A stretch of 64,000 nucleotides of DNA from a bacterium (GTDB taxonomy: Bacteria; 4484-113; JAGGVC01), in assembly GCA_039961635.1 (NCBI GenBank), contig JABRWB010000008.1, positions 30,158 to 94,157 of the forward strand, read 5' to 3'. This document shows, one piece after another, positions 19,007 through 56,548 of this stretch; the first letter of the stretch is position 1; every line of letters starts with the position of its first letter. Made by a program: the position numbers and the translations under genes. A model generated the notes under the pieces. It was not told the origin of the DNA. It did no database searches and was given only the letters and a program-made list of their open reading frames with translations.

Positions 19007-20883
19007 GTGCCCTTGACGACCAGAATCGGGATGTCCCCGATCTCGTGCTGGACTACCGCGACCGTCGAGCCGAAAATCCAATCCTGCACCGCGCGGTGGC
19101 CGTGGCTGCCCAGAACCAGCAGGTCGAGCTTTTCCTCGGTGGCGATTTTGACCACGCCTTTGGCAGCGTTGCCGAATCCGAGCCTGTAACGTGCGGCTCT
19201 CCCGGACGCTTCGAGTTGCTGAACCAGATTTTTCAAGTATTCTTCGTCCTCGATCGCTTCCCTGTCTTCCGCGTAACCCTCGTACACCTGCGCGGTGGCG
19301 CTTTCCACTATGTGTATAAGTATCAGCTCCGCGCCGCACTGCGAGGCGATGGGCGCGGCCTTTTCCATTATCTTGATGTCGCTTTCCTTCACTTCGAGCG
19401 CGACGCCTATCTTTTTGTATTTGGGCGAAGCGGGCAGCTTTGCCAGGTCGAGGGAGGCGGGCTTTTGCGCCTTGGTTTCGAACAACCGCCGCAGAAGCGC
19501 ACGGAACGTCACGAACCCCAATAATATCACCAGCCCGATTGCAAGCGGCACGACCACAAAATCCACCCACGGCCCCGCCTTTCTCCATTCGTTTATAACC
19601 TGGTATGCGAGCCACATGTTCAATCCGATGATGACGAACGCGCATGCCCAGGCCAATACGTTAACCCAAACCGGATTTGCGAACTTGCCCATCCTTCTTT
19701 TGTCGCTCGTGAAATCTATAAGCGGCACAATCGCGAACGGAAGCTGAAGCGATAGAATCACCTGCGATAGAATGAGCAGCTTGTACGTGCCTTCGCTTCC
19801 CGAAATCCCCACCACGATAACCGCGGGGACGACCGCGATCATGCGAGAAACCAGCCGCCTCGCCCAAGGCTGCATTTTCACCCTGACGAAGCCCTCAAGG
19901 ACTATCTGGCCCGCGAGAGTGCCGGTGAGCGTGGATGATTGGCCGGCGGCAAGCAGCGCGACGGCGAACAACGTGGATGCCAGCGTGGTTCCAACAAGGG
20001 GCGCGAGCAGCTCGTGAGCCTGCTGGATTTCGGTGACCTCGATTCCGCGCGCGTGGAATACCGAAGCGGCAAGCGTAAGTATCGCCGCGTTGACGAAAAA
20101 CGCCGCGTTGAGCGCGATCACGGTGTCTATCAGATTGAATCGCATCGCGGCGCGTTTGCCTTCATCGGTGCGTTCAACCGCGCGGCTTTGCACGAGCGCG
20201 GAGTGGAGGTAAAGGTTGTGCGGCATCACTGTCGCGCCGAGCATTCCGAGCGCGACGTACAGGCTGTCTCCATCGATGCTGGGAATGAATCCCGCAATAA
20301 GGTCTCCCATCACCGGCGGGGAAAGCAGCATCTCGACGAAGAACGACGCGCCCACAATAAAAACGAGTGAAAGAATGAACGCTTCGAGCTTGCGGATTCC
20401 CCAGTGCTGCAGCAGCAGTATCAAAAGCGTGTCCGCAACCGTTATCGCGATGCCCCATATCAAAGGCATACCGAAAAGCAGATTGAGTCCGATCGCGGTT
20501 CCGAGCACTTCCGCCAGGTCGCACGCCGCGATCGCGAGCTCGCACAAAATCCACAGCGGGATGTTGACAATAGGCGGATAGGATTCTCTGCAAGCTTGCG
20601 CAAGGTCGCGCCTGCCCGCGATGCCCATACGGGCGCACAGCGTCTGAAGAAGGACGGCCATCAGGTTGCTCATCAGAAGAACCCAAATGAGCTGGTAGCC
20701 GAAGCGCGCGCCGCCCTCCAGATCGGTGGCCCAATTCCCGGGATCCATATACCCGACGCTTACCAGGTATGCCGGCCCCATAAACGCGAAAAGCCGGCGC
20801 CACCAACTTCCGAAAGCAGGAATCTTGACGGTGGAATGAACCTCGGACAGCGACAAGTCGTGCGATTTCGCGGTGGTTGTCAT
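19003..20883 (-). CDS. mntH: Nramp-family divalent metal (Mn2+/Fe2+) transporter MntH fused to a C-terminal universal stress protein (UspA) domain
   Basis: Nramp signature GPAYLVSVGYMDPGNWATDLEGGARFGYQLIWVLL with 11-12 TM helices. The last 150 aa (KIGVALEVKESD...LLVLGSHGHRAVQDWIFGSTVAVVQHEIGDIPILVV) match the Usp fold. Confidence 0.85.
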   Translation of the reverse strand: MTTTAKSHDLSLSEVHSTVKIPAFGSWWRRLFAFMGPAYLVSVGYMDPGNWATDLEGGARFGYQLIWVLLMSNLMAVLLQTLCARMGIAGRRDLAQACRESYPPIVNIPLWILCELAIAACDLAEVLGTAIGLNLLFGMPLIWGIAITVADTLLILLLQHWGIRKLEAFILSLVFIVGASFFVEMLLSPPVMGDLIAGFIPSIDGDSLYVALGMLGATVMPHNLYLHSALVQSRAVERTDEGKRAAMRFNLIDTVIALNAAFFVNAAILTLAASVFHARGIEVTEIQQAHELLAPLVGTTLASTLFAVALLAAGQSSTLTGTLAGQIVLEGFVRVKMQPWARRLVSRMIAVVPAVIVVGISGSEGTYKLLILSQVILSLQLPFAIVPLIDFTSDKRRMGKFANPVWVNVLAWACAFVIIGLNMWLAYQVINEWRKAGPWVDFVVVPLAIGLVILLGFVTFRALLRRLFETKAQKPASLDLAKLPASPKYKKIGVALEVKESDIKIMEKAAPIASQCGAELILIHIVESATAQVYEGYAEDREAIEDEEYLKNLVQQLEASGRAARYRLGFGNAAKGVVKIATEEKLDLLVLGSHGHRAVQDWIFGSTVAVVQHEIGDIPILVVKGT

Positions 20884-32251: not shown

Positions 32252-32302
32252 CTCCCTCCTATTTTGTCCGAGGGAGGAGGGGAAAAACCCTCCTCCCTTT
32301 TT
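32252..32302 (+). terminator. Attenuator-like unit 3 of 3, about 30-60 nt upstream of the start of CDS 32332-33747
   Basis: CTCCCTCC-tattttgtccga-GGGAGGAGGG-gaaaaa-CCCTCCTCCC-TTTTT, 155 bp after unit 2. Confidence 0.6.
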
Positions 32303-32331
32303 GTCGCGGGGGCGCGGGATGGTGCAATCCG

Positions 32332-33747
32332 GTGAAACGTGATTCACCGCCGATACGGAGCTGTGTGGTGAATGAAATTTGGGCGCCTTTAATTGCTCTG
32401 ACATCGGCTCTCCGCTTTGCTAACATTCCAGCCGTGTCCATTCCCGACCACACGCTTCGCTTCAACCGCCGCTCGCCCGAGTTCGCGCTCGACTGGGCGT
32501 GGCTTGCGCTTGCCGATTCCCGCCCGCCGGAGAATCCCGACATTTCTTTCCGCCGGCTCGCCGATGCGAAGGAAACGGCCCGCGGCCTGTTCGTGAGCCG
32601 CCAGATGAAGCTCGCGGATTTGCAAATCCTTCGCGGCCGGGTAGAAAAAGCCGCCCGCGCAAAGACCGATGCCGAAGTGGAATACGAGTTGTTCCTGGAG
32701 AGCCTTGACGCTTCCGCCGCCGCGGCGAAGCGAACCGTCAATCCGCTCAAAAAGCTTTCGGAAGACAAAAAGCGCGAAGAGCTGCTCAAGAAAAAAGCCG
32801 GACCGGTCAAGGCCGCCCGCGAAGTGCACGCCGCGCTGGAAAAACAGCTCGCGGCACTTGAAGCGGAGATCGCGAAGCTCGAAGCCGGCAGGGAAGCCGC
32901 GCTCGCGAATTCAGCCGCACTGGAAGAGCGATGGATTGCCGCGGCGTCCGCCGAGGCGCTGTCGATGCTCGCATCGGAGGGGCCGGATTCGGCCGCGGCG
33001 GCGCTCGAAGCGCGGCTGGGACGGGATCCGCGGCGGATCGAATTCAATTTCCTGCTGTGGATGTGCGCGCAAATCGCATCCGGGCTGTCAGCCGATCCCG
33101 AAAAGCTATTGCATAAATCCCGCGCCGCGATCGCGGAGATACGCGCTTCGGACGCGCACGCGCTCGCAGCCGCGATGGAAGCCTGCGATTCGCCTTCCGC
33201 ACCGGAGTCGCCGCCCGCCACGCCGTCCGACATCGGCGCGCGCGCATACCCGCTTTATTCGCTGTGCCGCGTGATGGCCGGCGCGCCCGCGCCGGCGGAG
33301 CTCGAACCGCCCCGGCTCGCCGCGCTGGCCGAAATTGTCAATCTCGCCGTCGCGGCCGAAAAACGCAGTGCGAAAACCGGGCAATTCGGCGACATTGCCG
33401 GAAAATCCCGCGACGCGGCTGCGCGGATTCTCGAATCCGGAAGCGATTTTCCCGACTCCGCGCTTGCATTGGCGGGCCACGTGCATATCCTTTGCGGCGC
33501 GGCCTCGGATTGGATCGATTTCCTCACGTCCAAGTCCGTTGCGCTTACGCCCGCGCACCGTTTTTCGCTTGGAATACTCGCGCTCGCGCACAAATCCGCC
33601 GGGCGCGAAGTCCCGTCCGCGCTTTTGGATATGTTCCGCAGGGGAAGGCCGGATTCCTTCCTTTGGTATACTCTTTCCGCGGTGGAGGGTGTGCCGCGCC
33701 TGGAGCATCCATTCGAATTCTCCGGCGGACTATTCCTGATCCCTTGA
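32332..33747 (+). CDS. Hypothetical coiled-coil protein (about 460-471 aa), first gene of a three-gene operon with the AAA ATPase
   Basis: GTG start (32332 or 32365/32368). Central Ala/Glu/Lys-rich coiled coil (KLADLQILRGRVEKAARAKTDAEVEYELFLESLDASAAAAKRT...LEAEIAKLEAGREAALANSAALEERW). The C-terminal 200 aa are Ala-rich helical. No known motif recognised. Confidence 0.6.
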   Translation: MKRDSPPIRSCVVNEIWAPLIALTSALRFANIPAVSIPDHTLRFNRRSPEFALDWAWLALADSRPPENPDISFRRLADAKETARGLFVSRQMKLADLQILRGRVEKAARAKTDAEVEYELFLESLDASAAAAKRTVNPLKKLSEDKKREELLKKKAGPVKAAREVHAALEKQLAALEAEIAKLEAGREAALANSAALEERWIAAASAEALSMLASEGPDSAAAALEARLGRDPRRIEFNFLLWMCAQIASGLSADPEKLLHKSRAAIAEIRASDAHALAAAMEACDSPSAPESPPATPSDIGARAYPLYSLCRVMAGAPAPAELEPPRLAALAEIVNLAVAAEKRSAKTGQFGDIAGKSRDAAARILESGSDFPDSALALAGHVHILCGAASDWIDFLTSKSVALTPAHRFSLGILALAHKSAGREVPSALLDMFRRGRPDSFLWYTLSAVEGVPRLEHPFEFSGGLFLIP

Positions 33748-33766
33748 AACGCCGCGGGGCGCCCAG

Positions 33767-35329
33767 GTGGAAAAAGACTTCAGCATCGTGGACGAAATCG
33801 AGCTTCTCATCCGCGCGCGCTACCCCATCCTTTACGTCCAGAGCTTCGAGGAAGACCGCGTGATTCCCGCGCTTCGCCGCATCTGCGAAAAGCGCGGCAA
33901 GGAATATTTCGAGTGGGCGTGCACGGAAGGATTCACCAGCTTCAAGGCCGGCGAAAAGAAAATAGACTCCGCCACCCGCGACCCCGTCCAGGCGCTGGAG
34001 CATGTCGCGCAGTCGAAACTTAACGCGGTTTATTTGCTCAAGGACTTCCACCCGTTCCTGAACGACTTCACCGTGACGCGCAAGGTGCGGGACGTCGCGA
34101 TGGCGCTGAAAAGCAGCTACAAAACGATCGTCATCCTCTCGCCGGTGCTGCGCATCCCGACGGAGCTCGAAAAGGAAATAACCGTCGTGGATTTTCCGCT
34201 CCCGGATTCGAAAGAGCTTCTCGAAATCCTCGACAACATCGTCAAGCTTGTCGCGAAAGACCCGAAGGTCAAGGTAAACCTGACGCAGGCCGACCGCGAG
34301 AACATCGTCCAGGCCGCGCTGGGGCTGACCGCGAGCGAGGCCAAGCAGGCGTTCGCCAAGGCGATTGTCCACGACGCGTCCATTTCGTCCGCCGATATAA
34401 GCATGATCCTTTCGGAAAAGGAGCAGATCGTGCGCAAGGCGGGATACCTGGAATACTTCCGCTCGCAGGACGAGTTCGCGCACATCGGCGGGCTGGATTT
34501 GCTAAAAAGCTGGATGGCAAAGCGCGGCCGCGCGTTCGGCGAGGACGCGAAAAAATTCGGGCTGCCCGCGCCCAAAGGCGTGCTTTTGGTCGGCGTCCAG
34601 GGCTGCGGCAAGTCGCTGACCGCGAAGGCCGTCTCCGGATTGTGGCAGCTCCCGCTGCTGCGGCTCGACGTGGGCAAGCTTTTTTCCGGGGTAGTCGGCT
34701 CGTCCGAGGACAACGCGCGGCGCGCGATAAAGTCCGCCGAAGCAGTCTCGCCGTGCATCCTTTGGATTGACGAAATCGAAAAAGGGCTGTCTGGAGTGCA
34801 GTCAAGCTCGTTCTCGGACGCGGGCACGACCAGCCGCGTCTTCGGCACGATAATCACCTGGATGCAGGAGAAGGAAAAGCCCGTATTCATAATCGCGACG
34901 GCGAACGACATAACGCAGCTTCCGCCGGAGATGATGCGCAAGGGGCGCTTCGACGAGATATTTTTCGTGGATCTGCCGGAGCAAGGCGAGCGTGTCGAGA
35001 TTTTCGAAATCCACATCAAAAAGAAAAAGCGCGATCCGGAGAAGTACGACCTCGAAAAACTCGCGGAACTCGCCGTCGGATTTTCCGGCGCGGAAATCGA
35101 GCAGGCCGTTATCAGCGCGCTCTTCGACGCGTTCGACTCCGGCAAAGAGCTGACGCAGGCCAACCTGGAGCGCGCGATTACCGAAACCGTCCCGCTTTCG
35201 CGCACGATGAAGGAGCACATCGAGGCGCTGCGCGGCTGGGCGAAGACCCGCGCGCGGTTCGCGTCAAGCCGCGAAAACGTAGAGGAAATCCAGCCGCTGC
35301 CCGCCGGATTCAGCGCGCTCGAAATCTGA
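33767..35329 (+). CDS. Classical-clade AAA+ ATPase with an about 230-aa N-terminal domain (Ycf46-like family)
   Basis: Walker A LLVGVQGCGKSLTAKAV. Walker B ILWIDEIEKG. Sensor-1/arginine finger region IIATANDITQLPPEMMRKGRFDEIFFVDLP (classical AAA second-region-of-homology pattern). N-terminal ELLIRARYPILYVQSFEEDRV resembles the conserved N-terminus of cyanobacterial Ycf46-type ATPases (recalled from memory, not searched). GTG start 20 nt after the upstream stop. Confidence 0.8.
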   Translation: MEKDFSIVDEIELLIRARYPILYVQSFEEDRVIPALRRICEKRGKEYFEWACTEGFTSFKAGEKKIDSATRDPVQALEHVAQSKLNAVYLLKDFHPFLNDFTVTRKVRDVAMALKSSYKTIVILSPVLRIPTELEKEITVVDFPLPDSKELLEILDNIVKLVAKDPKVKVNLTQADRENIVQAALGLTASEAKQAFAKAIVHDASISSADISMILSEKEQIVRKAGYLEYFRSQDEFAHIGGLDLLKSWMAKRGRAFGEDAKKFGLPAPKGVLLVGVQGCGKSLTAKAVSGLWQLPLLRLDVGKLFSGVVGSSEDNARRAIKSAEAVSPCILWIDEIEKGLSGVQSSSFSDAGTTSRVFGTIITWMQEKEKPVFIIATANDITQLPPEMMRKGRFDEIFFVDLPEQGERVEIFEIHIKKKKRDPEKYDLEKLAELAVGFSGAEIEQAVISALFDAFDSGKELTQANLERAITETVPLSRTMKEHIEALRGWAKTRARFASSRENVEEIQPLPAGFSALEI

Positions 35330-36366
35330 TGGCTGGCATCCGCCCACTTGATTACCTTGCGGATTACTACCGCACGCGGCCGAACATATACGAGCTGCCG
35401 ATAGAGTCCTCGGGGCTTGCGGACGACGACCTGCATATAAAAACTTTCGGCAGGCTTGCCTCGCTCGCGATGCTGCGCCACGAGAAAACCGTCCTGCGCG
35501 GGATGAGACTGCTTGTCGAGGGAAGCTGGGAGGAATGCGCCGAAGAAATGAAACGCGCGCTGGCGACGATGCCGGGGCTGACCGACGCGCGGCTTTTGGC
35601 CGCGATCGCGTATTACATGCAGGGCAAGCCCGCGCTCGTCGCGAAAACGCTGGCGATTGAAATCGAGGGCGCGAATCCGGATCCCGCGGTGGGGCGGTAT
35701 TTCCGCGCGTGGCTCCCCTCGCTGCGAATACTCGTCCGGCTGGACGACGATCTGGTCGCGCCGTTTTATCCGAACCGGCTGGGGCTTTTCGCGCTCGCGA
35801 TCGCCGCGCAGCGCGAGCTGGGAAACTTCCGCGACGCGGGAATCGCAGTCGAGCAGGCGGCGGACGAGTTCGGTCTCACCGACGAGCTTTTATACTCCGC
35901 GCTGCTGCTGCACCTTCGCACGGGCGGGTACACCGAGGCGTGGCGGCTCGTCCAGACGCGGGAGTACAAGAACCGGGATTCGCTGGACGTCGGGCTTCTG
36001 ATGCTGCGCGCCGAGGCGATGATCGGCCCGCTGGGGATAAACCGCGCGCTCTCCGAATACCGCAGCGCGCTGCAATTCAGGGACAAGCGCTGCAAATGGC
36101 TGATGAACCGGGCGCGCTGGCGCATCGCGGAGCTGTACCAAATCGGGGGGTACTTCCCGGACGAGCGCGAAGCGCTTTGCGCGATAGAGCCGGAGTATTT
36201 TCCGGCGCACCTGAACGAAAGGCGGCTGGCCCGCATTGCCGAACTCCCCGCGCCCAAGGAAGAGCCGGAGGGACTTAAAACCGACGAGCGGTATTTCAAG
36301 CGGTTCGACTACGTCTGGCGAGGCAAGGTGCCGCCCGACGAGCCGGTGGATTTTCTGGAAGTGTGA
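35329..36366 (+). CDS. Hypothetical helical-repeat (TPR-like) protein, third gene of the AAA operon
   Basis: ATG overlaps the AAA gene stop (TGATG). 345 aa, all-alpha, with repeated A-x-x-Y-Y/A-x-x-L helical hairpins. Confidence 0.6.
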   Translation: MAGIRPLDYLADYYRTRPNIYELPIESSGLADDDLHIKTFGRLASLAMLRHEKTVLRGMRLLVEGSWEECAEEMKRALATMPGLTDARLLAAIAYYMQGKPALVAKTLAIEIEGANPDPAVGRYFRAWLPSLRILVRLDDDLVAPFYPNRLGLFALAIAAQRELGNFRDAGIAVEQAADEFGLTDELLYSALLLHLRTGGYTEAWRLVQTREYKNRDSLDVGLLMLRAEAMIGPLGINRALSEYRSALQFRDKRCKWLMNRARWRIAELYQIGGYFPDEREALCAIEPEYFPAHLNERRLARIAELPAPKEEPEGLKTDERYFKRFDYVWRGKVPPDEPVDFLEV

Positions 36367-37272
36367 GGGGCGCAATTTCATATCCCTCCGGTTTCCGGAA
36401 TGGCGCGCAGCGGAATTTTCGCAGGCGCGGCTGGCAGCCGCCCGTTTTCCCGCCGCGGAAATGCGCGGATTTTTCTGGGAGTACGCCGCGTGAGCGGCGT
36501 CCCGCATCGCCTGCGTGAGCGGGCGTGAAAGGACTATCTTTATTTTAGCCGCTTAAGCGGCACAAACCCGACGGCACTTACGTGCCGTACTCCCGGACGC
36601 TACGCGGATATTAGGTATTGATACCGGATACGGCTTGGCCTTCAGGAGTGCGAGAGCCGCGCTCTCGCTCGTTAACGGGAAGCCATGCTTCCCGGAAAAT
36701 AGGAATTCAAATTGCATTGCGCAAACATGAAATTAAAGGAAAAACAATTTCCCCGAAGCATGGCTTCGGGATATCGAGCGGCAGCATGGCCGCCGCAATC
36801 CGGACGCGACGCGGCATTATGAACCGCCGCGACGCGGGGCGCGGCATCCAGCGCGACATGCAGCCCATTCCGGCTCCGCTGTACCTACGCGGAACCTGCG
36901 CGTTATGGCGCGACGCGTGGGAAACGGAAGGCCGGGCGGCGGGCGAGCCGCCGCTCGCCCCTACGGGAAATTTGAGGCGGCTATGGTTTAATGCGGAACG
37001 TCGGAAAAGGCCCGGAAAATTCCCGCATCCCCTGAGTAAAACTGCGTTTGACAGTCCAAAGGGGGGGCGGCCTGCCCTTCCATTTTGGAACGTTGCCTGA
37101 ATGGTGGGATTAACATATTCTTCCTTCTACGAATAATGGCGGAATGTCAACATGGGAAGGCCATGGAAAGATCTGTTTTTGCATGCGAAGATTGTCTGAT
37201 ATTAATCCGTCCAGATCGCTTTTAGCAGTTCGGCTTTGGGGCGATGGTATGAAGAAATTGCCCAAAATATCA

Positions 37273-40170
37273 TCAGAGTTCGTCAGGATCAAGCCTTTGA
37301 ACCAGAAAATCCCGTGAACCTCCACCGACATCAAGTACACCCTCCCTCCAAGTTTGAATCCCATCGGAATCAACAAATATTCCGGATATATTCCCGGAAG
37401 TAACATTTAAATTAATAACTTCTCCCGACGGATGGCTGATGTATGGATTTCGTGCTTCAAATTTCAAACTAGCGCTATTGCAGTTACCCGCCAGCACCAG
37501 TTCGTCATGGCCAGCCTTTGCAATTACCATTCCATCCATATAGTCTTTAATATCACTCAATCCAAATGCCCATATTATGTTTTCATCTATGTCCATTTTG
37601 GCTAAAGATGCGCGCCAAAACGAAATGTATACCCCGTCAGAAGTCGGAACAATACCGCGAGTCCAATATGGTAGTTCCTGGAAGCACGCTGCTTTTTTTA
37701 GCTCACCTGAATCGCTAAATTTCAAAAGTATTGGCTTTTGAACCCCGTTGCTGTAGTACTCTGTTCCGCCGCCTAGGTAGATATCGCCTGTGTCGGATAT
37801 GGCCAGGTCGTTTCCATATTCCTTTGACGGAGTCTCCCATCTACGCGCCCAAATAAAGTTGCCATCCATATCAATTTTCATTATCTCCAAATCGCCTTGG
37901 CCTGCTTCGGCATCCCAATTGTATCCTCCTGCATACAAATATCCGTTTTGCTGGTCAATTTCGCTCGGATAAGCAACCGCGCCAGGATAGGCGCGCGCCC
38001 AGATTAGCTGGCCCGATGAATCAAGATTTAATATTATACAAATTTTATCGGCCGCATCGCTTATAAAACCCAACACGTAAACAAATCCATCTTCATTAAC
38101 GACAACACTTCTGGCGACCGATTCAACACCAGCCAAAAATAACTTGGACCACAGAATGTAGCCATATTCGTTATAGCGTTGAATTAACAAGTCATTATGA
38201 GGCTCTGGCTCAAAGCTGGTTGCTGTCCATCCAGCAACGTATACGCCGCCCTCATTGTCGGCGGCAATGCCTCCTGCACAATCGTTAAAAGTAGTATGGT
38301 AGGTAGTAGCCCAATAAAAGTTGCCATATTGATCAAAAGTAGCAAGCAATATGTCTCTAAAAGGATCATCCTCAACACTTATATCGCCAACTATGCATTC
38401 CGAGTCATTTGATGTGGATGTGACCTCTAGCGCGTACTCAGACAAAACGGAGCCCCAAGAATGGTACCAGTCCACATGCGATACCGCAAATGAAAAGGGA
38501 AAGCTGGCCATGCCAAAGGGACTAGTGAGTTCGAGCATTCCAACGTAATCTCCCGGCTCTCCAAGCATGACAACTGGTGTTGCTTCGGAAGATTGCGACG
38601 GCACAGCATAATCTCCAAATGTCCAATTGTATGCTAGTGGTTCTGACCCAACGACATCTGCAGAAAACTGAACTTGGGTTGCACGATATCCGCTTAAAGG
38701 CGAAACCGATAGTATTTGTGGAGGCGCGCCCGGGCCATAAACTGTAAAAGTAAAATGAAATTCATCCTCCCCCGAAGAATTCGTCGCCTTAAAAATACCA
38801 TCGTATTCGCCAGCGGTCGCAAATACAATTTGTGGCCAAAAATCGGATGAATGGTTCGGTACAGCTCCGCCTCCAAAATCCCAAGAATAGTACATTGGTT
38901 CTGTGCCATTTACCGATGCTGAAAATGTGGCCCGGTCGCCTTCAATGCCGAACAGTGGGGAAACAGACTTAATGTTGGGCACATATGGATTGGCAACAAC
39001 ATCAAGATTGAAATGCCTGGAATCGCTACCTGCTGGATTTGACACGGTAAGTAGGCAATCATATTCACCTTCTGAGCCAATTTGCTCGGTTGGTTGCTGC
39101 AGATTACTGGCAGATGGAGTGGCTGCATCTCCAAAACTCCAGCTGTAAATAAATGGCTGAGTTCCGGAAATTGCTGCCCGAAATACAACTGAATTTCCGG
39201 CAAGTGCACTCTGGGGTGCAATACTCATAATATTTGGCCTTATTAAGTTTGCCGGAATTTGGATTATATTGCTACTATCTCCCTCCGAATTATCACTGGC
39301 CACCGGAACGACGCATACAAAACCTTGTTGTCCCATCGGTAGGTTTAGAGTGATTTTATGTTGAGCTAGTACTTGCTGGCTTACGGGAGTTGGCGCGCCG
39401 ATTTGGATATATTCGCCTTGCTCAAGCGAAGAAGTCAAGACTACATAGCCCCATACTTCGTTTAGGAACCTTAATGCGATTGGTGTTATGTCGCTTATTC
39501 CAACCACGCCGTCACCATCGCCGTCTATCCATGCCTCCAGCGCGTCGTCGCCGATGCCGTCGTTTGTGAGCGCGCCGAAGTGGAGCGCGATCGGCGTGAT
39601 GTCGCTTACGCCCACCTCGCCGGAGACGTCGAAGTCGCCAAGGTTCACGTAGCTCCAGCTAAGCGTGTTCGTCCCCGGATCGTACGCGAGATCGGTCACC
39701 CGGCCGGCGTCGCCCTGGGGGGCTCTTGATACGATGCGGTTCCCGCTTGCGGAATTGCGCGAGCCGCCGCCCGCGATTCCCGATTCGCGCGTGCCGCCCG
39801 CGATTCCCGATTCGCGCGCGCCGCCCGCGATTCCCGATTCGCGCGCGCCGCCGCCCGGCGCTGCAGCTCCATTGCCATGTATTTCTTCGAGCCGGCGGAT
39901 GAGTTCGCTACGAAGCGTTTCGAATACCGCGGGATCGGCGCCGTCCGGAGTTTCGTAGCCGCGGATTTCGTCGAGCGCGGATTCGAGCGCGACGGATTTC
40001 GGTTCGGCGATTGCGATTCCCGTTTCGGGCGAGTCCCGCCAATCGCGGGAACGATGTCCGCCCGCGTCGCCTGCGGAGTTTCTATGCTTGCCCGCGGAGC
40101 AGGATGGGACAAGGAGCGATGCGGCCAAAAGCGCCGCGGCGATTGCGAATGCGGCAAGCGACTTTGTCAT
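37273..40170 (-). CDS. Secreted cell-surface protein: signal peptide, 3x ARESGIAGG repeat, dockerin-like Ca-binding repeat pair, 3 PKD domains, C-terminal SBBP-type beta-propeller
   Basis: 965 aa. Signal peptide MTKSLAAFAIAAALLAASLLVPSCSAG. Dockerin-like segments GDFDVSGEVGVSDITPIALHFGA and IDGDGDGVVGISDITPIALRF. Three PKD-like blocks (..YSWSFGDAATPSAS.., ..YYSWDFGGGAVP.., ..YNWTFGDYAVPS..). At least 6 SBBP-like repeats (DNEGGVYVAGWT, NEDGFVYVLGFI, QQNGYLYAGGYN, DTGDIYLGGGT ...). The DNA from about 37100 to 39450 is markedly AT-rich relative to the window. Confidence 0.75.
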   Translation of the reverse strand: MTKSLAAFAIAAALLAASLLVPSCSAGKHRNSAGDAGGHRSRDWRDSPETGIAIAEPKSVALESALDEIRGYETPDGADPAVFETLRSELIRRLEEIHGNGAAAPGGGARESGIAGGARESGIAGGTRESGIAGGGSRNSASGNRIVSRAPQGDAGRVTDLAYDPGTNTLSWSYVNLGDFDVSGEVGVSDITPIALHFGALTNDGIGDDALEAWIDGDGDGVVGISDITPIALRFLNEVWGYVVLTSSLEQGEYIQIGAPTPVSQQVLAQHKITLNLPMGQQGFVCVVPVASDNSEGDSSNIIQIPANLIRPNIMSIAPQSALAGNSVVFRAAISGTQPFIYSWSFGDAATPSASNLQQPTEQIGSEGEYDCLLTVSNPAGSDSRHFNLDVVANPYVPNIKSVSPLFGIEGDRATFSASVNGTEPMYYSWDFGGGAVPNHSSDFWPQIVFATAGEYDGIFKATNSSGEDEFHFTFTVYGPGAPPQILSVSPLSGYRATQVQFSADVVGSEPLAYNWTFGDYAVPSQSSEATPVVMLGEPGDYVGMLELTSPFGMASFPFSFAVSHVDWYHSWGSVLSEYALEVTSTSNDSECIVGDISVEDDPFRDILLATFDQYGNFYWATTYHTTFNDCAGGIAADNEGGVYVAGWTATSFEPEPHNDLLIQRYNEYGYILWSKLFLAGVESVARSVVVNEDGFVYVLGFISDAADKICIILNLDSSGQLIWARAYPGAVAYPSEIDQQNGYLYAGGYNWDAEAGQGDLEIMKIDMDGNFIWARRWETPSKEYGNDLAISDTGDIYLGGGTEYYSNGVQKPILLKFSDSGELKKAACFQELPYWTRGIVPTSDGVYISFWRASLAKMDIDENIIWAFGLSDIKDYMDGMVIAKAGHDELVLAGNCNSASLKFEARNPYISHPSGEVINLNVTSGNISGIFVDSDGIQTWREGVLDVGGGSRDFLVQRLDPDEL
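39765..39845. repeat. Three tandem 27-bp repeats inside CDS 37273-40170 (encode ARESGIAGG x3)
   Basis: gccgcccgcgattcccgattcgcgcg(t/c) repeated three times, head to tail. Confidence 0.8.
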
Positions 40171-40437
40171 CCCTGCACCTCCGGCGGGCGTTTATTCCGC
40201 CAAAACCAGCAAATTATAGACGGAAAGATTATTGCGGAAAATTGGGGAAATGTCAAATGTGCAGAGCGAAGTGTGAAGAGTGAAGAGGGATGAGCCATAA
40301 GGCAAAAGGGAAAAAGAAAGACGGAATCGAGCGTTGAGAAATCAAGGTTGACGGCCGGGCGCCTTTCCGGAGAACTGCGCATTACGACCCTGGCAGGCGG
40401 ATTATTTTGAATATTCAAAATATTCAAAAAACCGACT

Positions 40438-44889: not shown

Positions 44890-45114
44890 TCACTTCGCCG
44901 CAGCCTGGTAAATCGCAGGGCGGTATCTGGGCTTCGGAATCCGTTTCCCCGACGCCTGCGCCGCTTCAATCCATGCGGATTTCGCGATAAGCACCTCGCG
45001 CAGAGCCTTCTCCGGCGTCGAGCCGAAGGCCGAGCAGAATTTGAGGTCCGGAATGTCCGCGACATAACATCCGTCCTCGTCACTGTAAAACACGTTGACG
45101 TGGTAATCTTTCAT
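44890..45114 (-). CDS. hicB: HicB-family antitoxin (type II TA)
   Basis: 74 aa. YSDEDGCYVADIPDLKFCSAFGSTPEKALREV fits the HicB/UPF0150 RNase-H-like fold. Overlaps the upstream hicA by 4 nt. Confidence 0.7.
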   Translation of the reverse strand: MKDYHVNVFYSDEDGCYVADIPDLKFCSAFGSTPEKALREVLIAKSAWIEAAQASGKRIPKPRYRPAIYQAAAK

Positions 45115-45368
45115 TTGCCGTCACCCACATCCAGCCCATAACGCTCAATAATCGAGACAAGCTGCCTGAGCTGGTACGTCTTTATTTTACCCCCGAAGTT
45201 CTGGATATTGATCAGTTCGTTAACACCCGCGCGCCGAAAAATATGGTGGCTTCCCTTTTTTCGGGCAAGGCGAAATCCTAGAGCATCGAGCAGGGTTAAG
45301 ACGTCTGCAAAGGAGACGTTGCCTGAACCGCGCAACACCTGTTCCAGCAATTTTCGTATCTTGGTCAT
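45111..45368 (-). CDS. hicA: HicA-family mRNA interferase toxin
   Basis: 85 aa. LGFRLARKKGSHHIFRR (the KGSHH motif of HicA dsRBD-like toxins). Confidence 0.75.
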   Translation of the reverse strand: MTKIRKLLEQVLRGSGNVSFADVLTLLDALGFRLARKKGSHHIFRRAGVNELINIQNFGGKIKTYQLRQLVSIIERYGLDVGDGK

Positions 45369-45751
45369 TAAGCGTCAAAATACGGGTAACCGAGTCATTC
45401 TATCTTAATTTAACTTAGATATTTCTAATAAGCGCCTCTACCCGCCGTAATTCACGATCGTGAACTGGATCGGGAAGGGCGCGCTGCCGTGCCAGAACGG
45501 AGCCGGCTCCTGATTTAGCCGCGCCGTGGACATAAAAGCAAATTGAGCCGGCGGCATGTCGCTCGCGAAAAAAACGCGGCGTCGGCTTTTCCAGTCCCCG
45601 TCCCGCTTGCCCCGATTGTCACAAAGATTTTTCCGCCGCAGGCTGTCCATTTCCGGCAATACTTGACAAATGTTGGCTATAATAAGCGATGGAGGCGTAA
45701 CCGAGCCAAGCCCGTTTTCCGGGCGGGGCGCCCGGCCTCCCGGAGGTTATT

Positions 45752-47119
45752 TTGAGCGATACTTTGAATTACCTTGATTCGGCGGAAGGGCGAAGTGAAT
45801 CGTACATGCGCAGGCGGCGGTGCGCGCTGTACGACGCGTACTTTTCGGGCAGGCCGTACGAGAACGAGCGGGAGTGGCGCAGCCTGCTCGGGTACTCGGC
45901 GGAAGTTTCCGCACCCGCGATTGTAGTCAACTATCCGCGGCTGGTCGTGGAGCGTCCGGCGCACTTCGCGTTCGACCGGGTCGCGGGCGTGGAGGCGGCT
46001 GACCCCGCGGCGCAGGAATTCGTCGAGCGGGCAATCGCCGGACTGGAGATCGGCGGTATAAGCTCGCTGGATGCGCTTTTAAGCGAAGCGGCGATAGAGG
46101 CGTCCATCAAGGGTGACGCGCTGCTTGTGTTCGATCCGTCGGGATTGGTGAGCGCGGGAAATGCAGGCGAGACGCCGGCCCTCCCTGTTTCAGTCATCCC
46201 CGCGGAGGATTACACGCTTGAATGCGATCCCCACGACGCGTCGAAAATTGCGTTCATCCGCATCGAGTACCGGATCTCCGATGGGAACGGGAAAGAAACC
46301 CGGCACAGGCGGGAGCTGCATCCCGACCGGATTCTTGAATTCATCGGCGACGCGCCGAAGGGCCGCAGGATTTGGTTCGGCGGAAACGCGGCGCACCTTG
46401 CGGGCGCCGCGCCGGACGAGCCGAAGGAATGGCGGCTCGTCTCCGCCGCGAAAAATCCGCTGGGCGAGATACCCGCGGTCGTCGTGCGCAACCGGCCGCG
46501 CGTCGGGCGGGCTTACGGCGAAAGCGACTTCGCGGATCTGCTGACGATATTCGACGACATCAACTGGAAATACTCGCAGAGGTCGCGCAACATCAGCCGG
46601 ACGATGAACGCGATTCTGAAATCAGTGAACGGCCGGATTCTGAACGACGTGATTTCCGAAAACGGCGTGCTGTCGGTGATCGGCGAGGGCGCGGAAGTCG
46701 GGTATCTCATCAACGACGCGGACATGAGGGAGATCTCGACGCATATCGCGGAGCTGCGCCGGGCGCTTTTCGAAATAAGCGGGGTGACGGTGCTGGACGC
46801 GGAGAAGCTTTCCGGATACGGCGCGCTGTCCGGATTCGCGCTGTCCGTTTTGTATGAGCCATTGATCGCGCTTGCGGAGAAAAAGCGCCGGACGATCGGC
46901 GGCGCGGTGGAGCGGTTCCTGTCGAAGATCGTCCGGGCGGGATGGAAGCTGGGATTGATCGAAACCGAGCCGGAAAGCTTCGGCGTGCGGATCAAGTACG
47001 GCGCGATGTTCCGCGAAAGCGAGCGCGAGCTTGCGGAAAAGCAGTCGAGATTGCTCGCCGCGATCGACGCGGGACTTTTGACGAAGGAGCAGGCGGGGAA
47101 GGCAATGGAAACAAGTTGA
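45752..47119 (+). CDS. Phage portal-like protein
   Basis: TTG start 8 nt after GGAGG. 455 aa. Size and position immediately upstream of the capsid gene fit a portal; the family was not verified. Confidence 0.5.
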   Translation: MSDTLNYLDSAEGRSESYMRRRRCALYDAYFSGRPYENEREWRSLLGYSAEVSAPAIVVNYPRLVVERPAHFAFDRVAGVEAADPAAQEFVERAIAGLEIGGISSLDALLSEAAIEASIKGDALLVFDPSGLVSAGNAGETPALPVSVIPAEDYTLECDPHDASKIAFIRIEYRISDGNGKETRHRRELHPDRILEFIGDAPKGRRIWFGGNAAHLAGAAPDEPKEWRLVSAAKNPLGEIPAVVVRNRPRVGRAYGESDFADLLTIFDDINWKYSQRSRNISRTMNAILKSVNGRILNDVISENGVLSVIGEGAEVGYLINDADMREISTHIAELRRALFEISGVTVLDAEKLSGYGALSGFALSVLYEPLIALAEKKRRTIGGAVERFLSKIVRAGWKLGLIETEPESFGVRIKYGAMFRESERELAEKQSRLLAAIDAGLLTKEQAGKAMETS

Positions 47120-47213
47120 CAGTTGGACAGTTGACAGTTCGACAGTTAACTGCGGTTGTTCGACAAAATACACCGGACATGCGAAGCAACTGTCAACTGT
47201 TAACTGTCAACTC
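47115..47213. repeat. Iteron-like inverted-repeat array between the portal and capsid genes
   Basis: Left arm GTTGACAGTTGGACAGTTGACAGTTCGACAGTTAACTG (4 x ACAGTTN). A 26-nt spacer follows. The right arm CAACTGTCAACTGTTAACTGTCAACTC is the inverted complement. Confidence 0.7.
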
Positions 47214-47286
47214 TGAACTTGATTACAGATGCAATCCGGATTATCAACCGGAAAAAGAAACTATGTAATTTTAAGGAGGATCGTGT

Positions 47287-48198
47287 ATGGCACTGACTTT
47301 GGCGGACGCCGCGAAGCTTGAAACGGACGCGCTTAAAAAGGGGGTGATCGAAACCTTCGGCGAGTTCTCGCCTGTCTTGGAAGACCTTCCCTTCATCGAG
47401 GTGCAGGGCAACAGCTACAAGTACGCGATCGAATCGTCGCTGCCCGCGGTGGAATTCCGCGAGGTGAATTCGGCGTACACCGAGAGCGCGGGCGAGTTCA
47501 CGCAGGCGAGCGAACCGCTCGTCATATTCGGCGGCGTCGTGGACGTGGACCGCTACCTGCAGCAAACGCGCGGCAGCATAAACGACCAGCGCGCGATCCA
47601 GACGCGGATGAAGGTGAAGAGCCTGGCGCTCGCGTTCACGCGCAACTTTTTCGAGGGCGACACCACGGCCGACCCGAATTCGTTCGAAGGGCTTTCGAAA
47701 AGGCTGACCGGCGCGCAGGTGATAACCGCGGACGACGGCGGGCACAACGGCGACGACCTTTCCATGGATTACATGGACATGCTGATAGACGCTGTGTGGG
47801 GCGGGCCGGACGTGATTTACATGAGCCGCCACAACAGGCGCAAACTGACGCAGATCGCGCGCGAAACGAACTTCCTCGAAGTGTACCTGGACGACTTCGG
47901 CAGGCAGGTGACGCGCTACGACGGAATTCCGGTGAAGATAATCGGGAAGGACGAGACGAACGAGGAAATCCTGGGCAACGACGAAACCGAGGGCGAAAAC
48001 GACGAAACGAGCAGCATCTACGCCGTCAAATACGGAGCGGACGAGTTCGTGTGCGGGATTACGAACGGCGGAATCCAGGTGGACGACCTGGGGCTTATCC
48101 CCTCCCCCCCCGTGTACCGCACGCTTATCGAGTTCTACTGCGGACTGGCGGTGTTCCATCCGCAGGCCGCGGCTAGGCTGAAGGGGATAAACAAGTAA
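47287..48198 (+). CDS. Phage major capsid-like protein
   Basis: TAAGGAGGATCGTGT-ATG. 303 aa starting MALTLADAAKLETDALKKGVIE, with an acidic patch DETNEEILGNDETEGENDETS. Position and expression signal fit a major capsid protein; the fold was not verified. Confidence 0.55.
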   Translation: MALTLADAAKLETDALKKGVIETFGEFSPVLEDLPFIEVQGNSYKYAIESSLPAVEFREVNSAYTESAGEFTQASEPLVIFGGVVDVDRYLQQTRGSINDQRAIQTRMKVKSLALAFTRNFFEGDTTADPNSFEGLSKRLTGAQVITADDGGHNGDDLSMDYMDMLIDAVWGGPDVIYMSRHNRRKLTQIARETNFLEVYLDDFGRQVTRYDGIPVKIIGKDETNEEILGNDETEGENDETSSIYAVKYGADEFVCGITNGGIQVDDLGLIPSPPVYRTLIEFYCGLAVFHPQAAARLKGINK

Positions 48199-48572
48199 TG
48201 GTCAACCCCGGTTACCTGATGCTCGGCGGGAAAGTGCTTTTCGACGATCCGTACGCGCTCGCGCTCCGCGGAAGCGGCGCGGGCGCGCCCGCCGGGCGCG
48301 GGTTAAGGACGAGGCGGATGGCGGCGCGGCGCGCTGTTGATTTATCTTCCCGCAAAAGCAATGCAACAGGCGAAACCGCGGACGCGGAACCCGATTTGCC
48401 GCCTTTGAAAAAGCTGTTCGTGGCAAGGACGCGCAACCGGCGCTACACGGGCGAAATTTGCGGCGTCTGGTTTTCGGACGGGGAAGCGCTGTGCGCCAAA
48501 GAAGAGGCCGAGGCGCTTTTGGAAGCGGGATGCGAAGTTACGGTATGCGGAGGAACAGATGACTTTGAGTGA
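48198..48572 (+). CDS. Phage-cluster hypothetical protein (124 aa)
   Basis: ATG overlaps the capsid gene stop (TAATG). Continues the gene run. Confidence 0.45.
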   Translation: MVNPGYLMLGGKVLFDDPYALALRGSGAGAPAGRGLRTRRMAARRAVDLSSRKSNATGETADAEPDLPPLKKLFVARTRNRRYTGEICGVWFSDGEALCAKEEAEALLEAGCEVTVCGGTDDFE

Positions 48573-49143
48573 ATACATTCGGCTGGCATGCGGCGACGCT
48601 ACGGAGGGCGAGCAGGCGCTGTCGGACGGCGATATCGCGGACGTGCTTGCGGGCGCGGTGCTTTCTCCGGTCAGCCGGAATTTCATCCGCGCGATCCTGG
48701 AAAGCGGCGCGCGGGCGAGCGTCCTGAACCGCGCGGGCTGGGTGGAGCTGCCGCTTTCCGCGCTAAGTCCCGACCACAGGAAGTGGGGTTGCGGCCTGGG
48801 CGGCTGGCTGGACGGGCTGACCGACGTTTACATCGGCGGCGGGTTGCATCCGCTCGGCGAAAACGAAAGCATAAACAACCTGACCGGAATCGTGACGCTT
48901 TTGGCGGATCCGGGGGAGGGGGCGGCGGTCAGCGTGCGCACCTATCTTGTAGATCTGCCGCGGGCGGTCCACGACGCGCTGATGCTTATCGCGGGAAGCG
49001 AATCGCGGCTCGCGATCAAAGCGGGCGCGGGCGGTGCGGACGTGGACTTGTCCGGGCTCGCGGAGGCGCTGCGCAGGCAGGCGCGCGAGGTGATGGGCGC
49101 GGCGCCGGTCGAAATCGAGCAGCGGGGGGACTACCCGCACTAG
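48559..49143 (+). CDS. Phage-cluster hypothetical protein (194 aa; head-tail connector/adaptor-size)
   Basis: ATG start overlaps the upstream gene by 14 nt. Ordinary composition. Confidence 0.45.
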   Translation: MTLSEYIRLACGDATEGEQALSDGDIADVLAGAVLSPVSRNFIRAILESGARASVLNRAGWVELPLSALSPDHRKWGCGLGGWLDGLTDVYIGGGLHPLGENESINNLTGIVTLLADPGEGAAVSVRTYLVDLPRAVHDALMLIAGSESRLAIKAGAGGADVDLSGLAEALRRQAREVMGAAPVEIEQRGDYPH

Positions 49144-49151
49144 GAGCTGAA

Positions 49152-49550
49152 ATGCCGGACGGAACCAGACTAAAAGCGTTGTTCGAGCGGATGATACGCG
49201 TGCTCGGCGGAAGCGCGGAGGAAGTCTTCATCCGCACGTACGAGGAAACGGGCGGGCATCCCGAAAGCGGGATGCCGCCGGCGCGGATCGCGACCGATGT
49301 TCCGATTTCGCCGCGGCCGATTGTTCTGGCTGCGGATCAACAATTTTACGTTTTCAAAACGCGCGAAATCGAATCGGTGCGCATCGAGGCGGGCGACGTG
49401 AAAATCGTGATGGACGCGGATGAAGGCGTCGAGGCGGAAACGATCCTGCATTTCCGCGGCGCGGACTGGCGCGTGTATCGCGTCGACGCACCCGTGTTAT
49501 TCGGAAGCGTGCAGGTGAAGATCGCGTACGCAAGGAAGGTGCAGGGATGA
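49152..49550 (+). CDS. Phage-cluster hypothetical protein (132 aa)
   Basis: GGAGCTGAA-ATG at 49152 (MPDGTRLKALFERM...). The track ORF 48588-49550 is a 5' over-extension in the same frame. Confidence 0.5.
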   Translation: MPDGTRLKALFERMIRVLGGSAEEVFIRTYEETGGHPESGMPPARIATDVPISPRPIVLAADQQFYVFKTREIESVRIEAGDVKIVMDADEGVEAETILHFRGADWRVYRVDAPVLFGSVQVKIAYARKVQG

Positions 49551-49993
49551 GGGACGCGATTACATCTCTTAACGCGTGGATTTCGGAAAAGCTGCCGGAC
49601 GTGGCGCACAGCTTCGCGCCCGGCTCGCCTGTGAGCTTTCCATGCGTCGTCGTCGTGCCGCGGACGTTGGGAGGAAAAACGAAGCCCGCGGGCGGGCCGG
49701 CCGCGCTGGCGACTGTCACGTTCCAGGCGGACTGCTGGGCGGACGGCGGCGACGCTTTGGCCGCGCGGACAATCGCGCAGCGGATACTCGCGGCGCTGCT
49801 TGGCGACACCGACCGCGGCGCGCGGATACCGCGACACCGGTGGATTTACGGGGAGGGGGAGCCGGTGCGGGCGGAGATGCGCGACGAGATGGTTGTGACG
49901 GACGCGCGGATAGCAGAAATTCCGATACGAGACGCGCCGGAGCTGCGGCTGTGCCGCGCGATTTTCGATCTGCGGTTTGTTTTGACGGCTTAA
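49547..49993 (+). CDS. Phage-cluster hypothetical protein (148 aa; tail-completion-size)
   Basis: ATGA overlap with the upstream gene. Confidence 0.45.
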   Translation: MRDAITSLNAWISEKLPDVAHSFAPGSPVSFPCVVVVPRTLGGKTKPAGGPAALATVTFQADCWADGGDALAARTIAQRILAALLGDTDRGARIPRHRWIYGEGEPVRAEMRDEMVVTDARIAEIPIRDAPELRLCRAIFDLRFVLTA

Positions 49994-50026
49994 CTAGAAA
50001 GTTAAGTCCATTTAAGGAGGATTTTA

Positions 50027-50841
50027 TGACGAACAACGTAAGCGCGCTGACGGTGGGGTCGGCGGAGATTTACATAAACGGCGAAAAGTGCGGCTGGGCG
50101 ACGGATGTCGAAATCGAAAAGCGCGTCGAGGTTCTGCGCCATGAAAGCAATGTGGGGCTTGAATTCGCGACCGACCACGTCGTGCCGCTGCGTCGAAGCT
50201 TCATCGTGCGAGGGCGCTTCGGCGAAGTGGACCCGCCCACGATCAACAACGCGCTGGGGCTGTCCGGGCTTTCCGCGCAGGAGACCGCGAGCGCGCAGGG
50301 GATGACCGAGTACGCGAGGTTGTATCCCGGCAGGTGGTACACGCTGCGGTTCCCGTCCACCGGAACGAGCATCGTTTTGAAAACGGCGGACGGTCAGACG
50401 ACGTTCGTGAAGAACACGGATTACGAAGTATCCGCCGCGCTCGACGCGATCAAGTTGAAGGACAATTCGGCGATTGCTCCGGGAGAGCTGCTTTTGCTCA
50501 GCTATTCGTATCAGCGCCCGCCGTACAGCGAGGTCGCGCTTTCCGCTCCTGGATTCGCTCGGCCCGTGCATCTCGTTTTGGTCCACCGCTATCCGGACGG
50601 CGCGAGCTTTTTCGAGCTGACGCTGCCGCGCGTGCTTCTCGAAGCCGACGTGTCGCTCGCGTTCGACGAAAAGGACTGGATCGGAATCGAGTTTTCCGGC
50701 GAGTGCCTGCCCGACGAAAGCGACGCGGCCGCGCCTTTCGGACGCCAGAAATTCTTCGGCCCGATATTCGAGAACATGGGGCTTGCCGCGGGCGACGTGG
50801 AGAGCAACCCTTACGTGCCGGAAATCGGCCCGACGTACTAG
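50027..50841 (+). CDS. Phage major tail (tube)-like protein
   Basis: TAAGGAGGATTTT-ATG, the same strong RBS as the capsid gene. 271 aa. Located between head-completion ORFs and chaperone/tape-measure ORFs. Confidence 0.5.
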
Positions 50842-50850
50842 GAGGACGAA

Positions 50851-51240
50851 ATGAACGAAACGGTTTTGGAAATCGAGCGCGACGTGTTTTTGGGCGAAGG
50901 GACGCCTCTCGTCCTGCGCGACGGGCGCAAACTGACCGTGCCGCGGTGGAGCGCGCGAAAAGCGCTGTCTCTGGGACGCAAGATCGCGGAGGCCGTGTCA
51001 ATCGCATCGCAGGCGGAGGGCGGCGGCGGCGGAAAGGCGATTCTGTTTTCGCTGCCGCTAATCGGCGAGGTTGTGTGCGAAACGCTTGGCGAGGATGAAT
51101 CGTTCCTGGACACGATCACGAAAGACGACCTTGCCGAAATCGCGCTTGCGATCGTGAAGCAGGAATTTATGTCCGAGCATTTCCTTTCGCTCTCAAAAAA
51201 AGCCGCGGCGCTCCTTCGCAGCTCTCGATCGGCGGATTGA
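50851..51240 (+). CDS. Phage-cluster protein, tail-assembly-chaperone position (129 aa)
   Basis: GGAGGACGAA-ATG. Followed by an overlapping small ORF, as in chaperone G/GT pairs of siphoviruses. Confidence 0.45.
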   Translation: MNETVLEIERDVFLGEGTPLVLRDGRKLTVPRWSARKALSLGRKIAEAVSIASQAEGGGGGKAILFSLPLIGEVVCETLGEDESFLDTITKDDLAEIALAIVKQEFMSEHFLSLSKKAAALLRSSRSAD

Positions 51241-56222: not shown

Positions 56223-56548
56223 ATCCGGAAATCACGACGACGGGAGCGATACTTGCGGGTCTCGCGGCGCTCGTCACCGCGGCAAGCGCCGGGATGGCGC
56301 GTGTAATCGCGGAGCTGCGCAAAATATCCAACGGCAACATGCAGCGGATCGACGAGAGGCTGGCCGAGATTGCGAAACTGGAGCGCGCGAATTTGATGAT
56401 GGGGGGGAAGATATTGCGGGCCATCCGCGGCCTCGGCGCGGACGGCAATTCGCCCCCCGTCAAAAAACGCGCGGGGCGCGCGGAGGGCGCGCCCGCTCTG
56501 ATTCCGCATCCATCTACAATGGAGGGCGATGGCAGGAATGACGGATAA
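56219..56548 (+). CDS. Small membrane protein (109 aa), holin-like
   Basis: One clear TM segment GAILAGLAALVTAASAGMARVIA followed by a charged tail. It sits immediately before the endolysin and overlaps it. Confidence 0.45.
   Translation: MNPEITTTGAILAGLAALVTAASAGMARVIAELRKISNGNMQRIDERLAEIAKLERANLMMGGKILRAIRGLGADGNSPPVKKRAGRAEGAPALIPHPSTMEGDGRNDG

Follow-up and report, generated by a model that had tools for sequence, protein, structure and literature searches.

We analysed a stretch of 64,000 nt from contig JABRWB010000008.1 (hereafter the window), which contains two genes, W1 and W2, that code for multidomain proteins of one family and have a similar N-terminal architecture but different C-terminal propellers. 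Our subject is W1, which is a mosaic: its 5' part has the GC content of its surroundings, and the rest of the gene, from the middle of a dockerin-like module onwards, lies in a sharply bounded island of low GC content that was probably acquired from a family member in a lower-GC genome. The features on which the argument turns are as follows, with their positions in the window.

37273-40170, minus strand: coding sequence of W1, 965 amino acids (aa), a mosaic family member (open reading frame, identical JGI gene call, Pfam matches to PKD and PKD_4).
37079-39504, no strand: low-GC island of about 2.43 kb, GC 0.45, GC at third codon positions (GC3) 0.39 (change points, z-scores, codon table, shuffle test).
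39504-39536, minus strand: 5' recombination junction, codons 213-223 (A-W-I-D-G-D-G-D-G-V-V), from the codon-by-codon switch in GC3.
39457-39645, minus strand: dockerin-like module, aa 176-238, with two 12-residue EF-hand-type loops, each followed by an ITPIAL helix.
39256-39450, minus strand: FN3-like beta-sandwich, aa 241-305, encoded by low-GC DNA (AlphaFold2 (AF2) model with a predicted local distance difference test score (pLDDT) of 86, FN3 matches in Foldseek, alignment with W2).
38476-39240, minus strand: three PKD domains of the 'SWxFGDxATPS' subtype, aa 311-565, encoded by low-GC DNA (Pfam).
37276-38475, minus strand: SBBP-type beta-propeller of W1, aa 566-965, encoded by low-GC DNA (match to the CylK propeller).
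58128-60704, plus strand: coding sequence of W2, 858 aa as the longest open reading frame, with native GC, a W1-like N-terminal architecture and a different propeller.

Read from its N-terminus, the W1 protein consists of a signal peptide ending in Cys24, a linker, the dockerin-like module, the FN3-like domain, the three PKD domains and the SBBP-type propeller. An earlier note on this DNA, made from the sequence alone, had taken the N-terminal regions of W1 and W2 to be homologous, and this is indeed the case: by BLASTP, aa 145-494 of W1 align to aa 91-439 of W2 with 40% identity (E 8e-64), in an alignment that takes in both loop-helix repeats, the beta-sandwich and the PKD domains and is not due to low complexity. 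The three PKD domains of W1 each align to the first PKD domain of W2 with 35-41% identity, and BLASTP detects nothing in W2 that resembles the first 140 residues of W1.

A maximum-likelihood analysis of composition places the change points at 37079 and 39504, with the 3' edge of the island about 190 nt beyond the W1 stop codon. Measured in 500-nt windows, GC averages 0.454 inside the island and 0.602 ± 0.036 outside it (z = -4.1), no 500-nt window outside the island falls below 0.50 anywhere in the 64 kb, and the tetranucleotide distance of the island reaches z = 16.5 when compared with equal-sized chunks of the window. These two comparisons, which the earlier note had proposed as a check, deviate strongly and agree with its description of AT-rich DNA from about 37100 onward; its placement of the 5' edge after the dockerin-like module has to be corrected, as the edge lies inside it. 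The same break is seen in codon usage: GC3 is 0.74 in W1 before the junction and 0.39 after it, the 15 other genes of the window range from 0.64 to 0.82, W2 has a value of 0.68, and the GC3 change point at W1 codon 222 has a log-likelihood ratio (LLR) of 40.7, against at most 11.2 across 2000 shuffles. The shift involves every one of the three codon positions and also the use of amino acids, the ratio of FYMINK to GARP residues being 0.84-1.10 for the island-encoded protein vs 0.46-0.55 for the equivalent domains of W2. Since the shift extends beyond synonymous sites in this way, the island appears to have spent a long period of its evolution in a genome richer in AT. The block at W1 thus stands apart in GC, oligonucleotide signature, codon usage and amino-acid usage alike.

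The switch at the 5' edge is abrupt, taking place within about 10 codons (between codon 212 and codon 223), and it places the junction within the second calcium-binding loop, resolved to the interval 39504-39536 and no more exactly. The two dockerin segments form an internal DNA repeat (D3) with 81% identity, and both encode the residues SDITPIAL, in repeat 1 as AGC GAC ATC ACG CCG ATC GCG CTC and in repeat 2 as AGC GAC ATA ACA CCA ATC GCA TTA. At the nucleotide level, similarity to W1 among 159 loci from other genomes is limited to nt 456-717 of the gene, where identity is about 70% and exact runs are at most 22 nt long, and the junction, at gene nt 631-666, falls within this sole block of DNA conserved across genomes. 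Homology to W2 runs about 170 residues beyond the junction, through the second dockerin helix, the beta-sandwich and the first PKD domain, and the island-encoded part aligns with family genes of other genomes at 33-43% identity. Because the homology to the paralogue continues past the junction, the donor would have been a member of the same family and not an unrelated cassette. The junction thus lies in shared sequence and both segments are homologous to one family, which is the pattern of a mosaic formed by homologous recombination. The earlier note had envisaged a foreign cassette recombined onto a resident secretion and anchoring module. A foreign origin of the AT-rich 3' three quarters, their attachment to a resident 5' part and the shuffling of C-termini across the family all fit these data; what does not is the picture of a propeller grafted onto an unrelated anchor, as the foreign piece continues the dockerin, FN3-like and PKD domains of one family.

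The family to which W1 and W2 belong is large. Searched with aa 140-310, the module yields 1633 representative clusters at a cut-off of E ≤ 1e-3, and 831 remain at E ≤ 1e-10, with the module almost always positioned 60-160 residues from the N-terminus. Its members follow a common order: the signal peptide ends in Cys and leads into a helical linker, after which come the module, consecutive PKD domains of the 'SWDFGGGATPN' type and a variable C-terminus; the latter can be an SBBP propeller, a W2-type propeller, or an arylsulfotransferase-like, CBM or PPC domain, and many members end in the W2-type propeller repeat. The metagenome-assembled genomes (MAGs) among reference genomes that carry the family are labelled UBP7, Planctomycetales, Planctomycetia or simply 'bacterium', and expansion within a single MAG is seen among 79 loci, about 30 of which come from CAYMAI01 and about 17 from JAGGVC01 (AUK090). 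Tandem family copies occur in L002, L021, L054 and L079, and two family matches come from candidate division Kazan MAGs with GC of 0.46-0.48. The GC of family loci spans 0.43-0.65, and since the lower ones have values of 0.43-0.50, plausible lower-GC donors that carry the family do exist. A search of the literature returned nothing specific on the family or the lineage; the family and its N-terminal dockerin-fold module appear to be undescribed, with no match in the domain libraries or the literature searched.

To place the step in W1 within the family as a whole, the GC3 change-point test was applied to 124 distinct family genes from 160 loci. W1 and L007, a gene from MAG AUK090 (positions 3026-5386), give the two strongest change points, with an LLR of about 40 vs a median of 5.35 (n = 124). 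The switch in L007 comes about 20 codons after the position of that in W1, just behind the second dockerin helix, and its low-GC DNA carries a W2-type propeller. A further locus of the same MAG, L044 (3-2800), switches at the start of the first PKD domain, and a single contig contains the two ends of its low-GC island, which is about 2.4 kb long. Weaker GC3 steps are found in L053 (4600-7200) and L150 (4689-6959), and L060 (3400-6200) is a family gene of low GC throughout (0.40-0.48), with flanks at 0.55-0.63. Judged from composition, exchange after the dockerin-like module seems to be a recurrent event in the family, affecting roughly 1 in 25 genes at this stringency.

Since the window comes from a metagenome contig (JGI 3300028461, Ga0307753_100040, 99.8 kb), an assembly chimera had to be considered, in which the assembler crossed between the family genes of two organisms at the dockerin-coding sequence and returned downstream; tens of copies per genome, with the conserved block, could indeed confuse an assembly graph. 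A Logan contig made by a different and conservative assembler from another run (L164, SRR32934033_12363) is, however, 100% identical to the window from 32252 to 39822 (7571 nt), spans both island junctions and is seen in two samples, and the mosaic is therefore not an assembler error. Contigs L169 and L170 (SRR32934023, SRR32934024) continue from 39823, the break between the Logan contigs being a 27-bp tandem repeat, and where other Logan contigs end, they do so at this repeat or at a GC-rich hairpin and not at the junctions. A chimera would moreover require two crossings, one of them in non-conserved intergenic DNA, and the exact matches of at most 22 nt between family members of different genomes offer little to cross at; we consider this explanation to be next to negligible. 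The ends of contigs L165-L167 near 36943 were considered as a possible alternative allele and rejected, as they reflect a coverage drop-out at the hairpin, with poly-G read tails.

If the mosaic is real DNA, one could still imagine that no transfer took place, and that the native sequence after the dockerin-like module became AT-rich through a local process, such as codon selection for the folding of repeat domains or a localised mutational bias. Several family genes of other genomes do have a C-terminal GC3 somewhat below that of their modules. In W1, however, the shift is completed over some ten codons, involves all codon positions and the amino-acid composition and continues for about 190 nt into non-coding DNA, W2 has native GC with equivalent types of domain, and most of the 124 family genes are without such a step, which leaves this idea with very little probability. 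It is also unlikely, in our view, that the whole gene came from a low-GC donor and that its 5' 630 nt, together with the promoter region, were later overwritten by conversion from a resident high-GC paralogue. Whole low-GC family genes such as L060 do exist elsewhere, and the junction sits in the block best suited to conversion between paralogues, but such a history takes two events where one would do, W1 has no similarity over its first 140 aa to W2, the only other visible paralogue, and no closely similar N-terminus was found. Nor is any low-GC sequence left in the intergenic DNA upstream of W1 or in the DNA of its signal peptide, except for the AT-rich stretch at 40200-40300 that is usual for a promoter.

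We thus favour, with a probability of about 0.75, the explanation that in W1, which belongs to a large family of probable surface lipoproteins, a recent exchange substituted the equivalent stretch of a family gene from a lower-GC genome for the 3' 2.4 kb. The event would have been a homeologous recombination or allelic replacement between family members of genomes that differ in GC, with a replaced stretch that begins halfway through the second dockerin loop and ends about 190 nt beyond the W1 stop codon. The incoming DNA would have recombined homologously in the dockerin-coding segment, the only part conserved at the nucleotide level across genomes, and its other end would have joined the intergenic DNA downstream, probably illegitimately or through microhomology, in a one-sided, homology-facilitated recombination. 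The gene would still code for an intact protein, with promoter, export signal, linker and first dockerin repeat all of resident origin, and the PKD stalk and SBBP-type propeller that it presents to the outside for binding would be new.

A number of results weigh against this account. The donor of the island was not found: the best protein match has 41% identity (743-aa query against 5.8 billion proteins), so that the search for a donor lineage suggested in the earlier note led to lower-GC carriers of the family but to no close relative, and blastn of the island against the 159 related loci returned only short matches to PKD motifs. A search for the parent with the N-terminal 222 aa gave only 6 weak matches, mostly to low-complexity words. 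As no unrecombined parental allele was found, the direction of transfer and the number of events have to be inferred. No remnant of a displaced 3' end is present in 36300-37300 (blastx against 82 family proteins, best E about 1), no integrase or transposase adjoins the island, and it is surrounded by no flanking repeats, target-site duplications, terminal inverted repeats or other direct or inverted repeats. Finally, the Logan runs may belong to the same sample series as the JGI assembly; they exclude an assembler error but do not represent an independent population. Syntenic loci, sought by way of the neighbouring 345-aa gene, were absent from the metagenome contig collection, which did not return the source contig either and seems to lack this sample. 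A weak tblastn match at 56456-56566 was rejected, as it lies in a spurious antisense open reading frame.

The element in which the junction lies was analysed separately. The module contains the loops DFDVSGEVGVSD (aa 179-190) and DGDGDGVVGISD (aa 216-227), each followed by ITPIAL, and thus has an EF-hand-like calcium loop and a helix, twice, as in the segment pair of dockerins. Among 29 family members, the Asp residues at loop positions 1 and 12 are invariant, and Asp3 and Gly6 are conserved in at least 90%. By sequence, the relation to known dockerins is distant: neither W1 nor W2 matches Pfam Dockerin_1 (PF00404) at E < 0.1, and both thus miss its gathering score, 3 of the 29 family modules match it weakly (best E 0.019), and a profile search of the PDB returns dockerins at E 0.26-0.66, the match at 0.26 pairing both loops with dockerin loops of C. 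thermocellum. A 181-residue model was of little use in Foldseek, its matches being dominated by the FN3-like domain, and the dockerin part was then modelled alone. The AF2 model of aa 156-240 has a pLDDT of 84.6, and its top 15 Foldseek matches in the PDB are all dockerins, with a probability of 0.99 for the top five and a collapse of the probabilities after the fifteenth. The better of these matches have a root-mean-square deviation (rmsd) of 1.9-3.1 Å, with 2y3n_B at a TM-score of 0.75 (target-normalised) and an rmsd of 1.9 Å over 62 columns. The Foldseek E-values are weak (0.015-0.6), which is to be expected of a 60-residue domain. According to the structural model, the module has a dockerin fold with conserved positions for the calcium ligands, in line with the dockerin-like calcium geometry that had been suspected from the sequence. 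A scan for cohesins, which covered ten large proteins of the window, found none, and the attachment to a cohesin-bearing scaffold or S-layer suggested in the earlier note is not supported.

Turning to the C-terminal ends, in W1 the final 400 aa give a match to the CylK beta-propeller in four stretches (E 1e-11); the match to Pfam SBBP (PF06739) reaches 16.8 bits, under the cut-off of 20.5, and the W1 homologues P0007 and P0018 carry PF06739. The C-terminus of W2 gives no match in Pfam and no sequence match in the PDB, and consists of about 6 full repeats and 1 truncated repeat of about 49 aa each. The view that the two proteins end in different propellers is thus retained, with that of W1 probably of the CylK/SBBP type, and the repeat count first given for W2, eight of 44 aa, is revised. 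In the stalks, PKD domains score above the Pfam gathering thresholds (PF00801 and PF18911) in both proteins, at 69 bits for PKD and 64 bits for PKD_4 in W1, and at 107 bits for PKD_4 and 87 bits for PKD in W2.

Four further features belong to W1 and its flanks.

40099-40170, minus strand: signal peptide ending in Cys24 (LLVPSC), a probable lipoprotein signal (from the sequence and by inference).
39765-39852, minus strand: 27-bp tandem repeat, 3.3 copies, 96% matches (Tandem Repeats Finder).
40228-40256, minus strand: promoter-like site upstream of W1, TTGACA, a 17-nt spacer and AATAAT, in native-GC DNA (consensus scan, weak evidence).
36751-36771, minus strand: hairpin resembling a terminator, in native-GC DNA about 500 nt beyond the W1 stop codon (consensus scan, weak evidence).

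Both signal peptides end in a cysteine, in W1 as ...LLVPSC24 and in W2 as ...TAALSC31, and a lipobox-like Cys is found by a lenient pattern in 85 of 126 family members, which makes W1 a probable lipoprotein as far as sequence can tell. The start of W2 has been called differently, giving 787 aa (JGI), 812 aa (NCBI) or 858 aa (longest open reading frame), with 58128-58341 as the disputed stretch; the public annotations probably truncate its export signal, since the signal peptide with Cys31 is present only in the 858-aa form. The 27-bp repeat, which had already been noticed as three copies at 39765-39845 and is here slightly extended, encodes the GGARESGIA linker repeats in the native-GC part of W1.

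Downstream of W1, two convergent genes are separated by about 900 nt (36366-37273), an unusually long gap, which gives no Rfam match and no protein similarity and holds only an overlapping gene call of 73 aa; the Rfam search likewise returned no family in the window as a whole. The gap contains a 57-nt imperfect inverted repeat (36642-36698 and 36748-36804) and a very GC-rich hairpin (36926-36958), at which Logan contigs from at least two runs end, at least one of them with a poly-G tail. Elsewhere in the window, a phage-like cluster of native GC at 45750-51000 (L168 15315-20924; L161 1-4311) encodes an SPP1-type portal, GP7, a protein with a faint match to the tail-completion protein gp17 and a major tail protein with an Ig-like domain (phrog_807), and is followed by large unannotated open reading frames up to about 56 kb that may be tail genes; from its gene content, the cluster is probably a prophage or a remnant of one. 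Just upstream of the portal gene, a HicA-toxin gene and small open reading frames at 44900-45650 lie where GC dips to 0.50 (45001-45500), the only noticeable dip of the window besides the island. The rest is ordinary chromosomal context, with two large multi-PAS/GAF sensor histidine kinases (3434-7399 and 21526-24273), one of them a hybrid with a receiver domain, and an Nramp-Usp fusion transporter (19003-20883).

If the replacement took place as we propose, W1 would be a well-documented case of recent recombination between distant lineages within a gene of an uncultured lineage, with the junction placed to about ten codons and with support from an independent assembly. It would show how a large family of probable surface proteins can vary the domains that face outwards and still retain a single end for export and anchoring. 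It also draws attention to an N-terminal module of dockerin fold that is not cellulosomal, and the identity of its partner would tell how these bacteria organise their cell surface.

The module resembles classical dockerins (PF00404; 2ozn_B, 2y3n_B, 4fl4) in its duplicated loop-helix unit with Asp at positions 1, 3 and 12 and Gly at position 6, and the predicted three-helix fold of the W1 module is matched best by solved dockerins. It differs from them in falling under the Pfam thresholds and in its setting: classical dockerins are placed C-terminally on an enzyme, whereas the family module is found near the N-terminus, some 80-120 aa behind a lipoprotein-type signal, and stands between a conserved beta-hairpin (WSYxN) and an FN3-like domain that is always present. 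As to SBBP/CylK propeller proteins, the C-terminal 400 aa of W1 match the repeats of the CylK propeller and homologues of W1 carry PF06739, but W1 itself scores under the Pfam cut-off, lacks the N-terminal domain of CylK and shows no sign of CylK-like catalysis.

Gene mosaicism by recombination is itself a known kind of mechanism. In the mosaic pbp2x and penA genes of Streptococcus and Neisseria, a divergent relative has supplied the homologous stretch in place of a block of the resident gene, with the junction in conserved sequence and the reading frame intact, and W1 resembles them in all three respects. In W1, however, the donor would be about 15 GC points away, the parts have only about 35-40% protein identity beyond the anchor, the block changes the domain content of the protein and ends outside the gene, and recognisable homology is found at one end only. 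A second point of comparison is the C-terminal displacement of Rhs and CdiA proteins, multicopy systems in which a conserved N-terminal or core region is joined to a variable and often AT-richer C-terminal cassette acquired horizontally, with a break in composition at a conserved motif. A sharp break of this kind at a conserved motif, recurring in a multicopy family, is also what we observe. W1 is nevertheless not a polymorphic toxin: its variable end consists of PKD domains and a beta-propeller, likely a binding module, in place of a toxin domain, there is no credible immunity gene in the downstream gap of about 900 nt and there are no orphan cassettes nearby, and the element that marks the boundary has a dockerin fold. 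One could speculate that this module does double duty across the uncultured lineage, as a protein handle by which tens of different lipoproteins in a cell are attached to a cohesin-like partner in the envelope, and as a DNA recombination anchor through which C-terminal heads of PKD domains and propellers are exchanged among genomes that differ strongly in GC, an idea that we put forward tentatively and regard as possible but doubtful. If it were true, the family would constitute a polymorphic adhesin system analogous to the polymorphic toxins, and among its exchanges, the one in this window would be the latest and the clearest.

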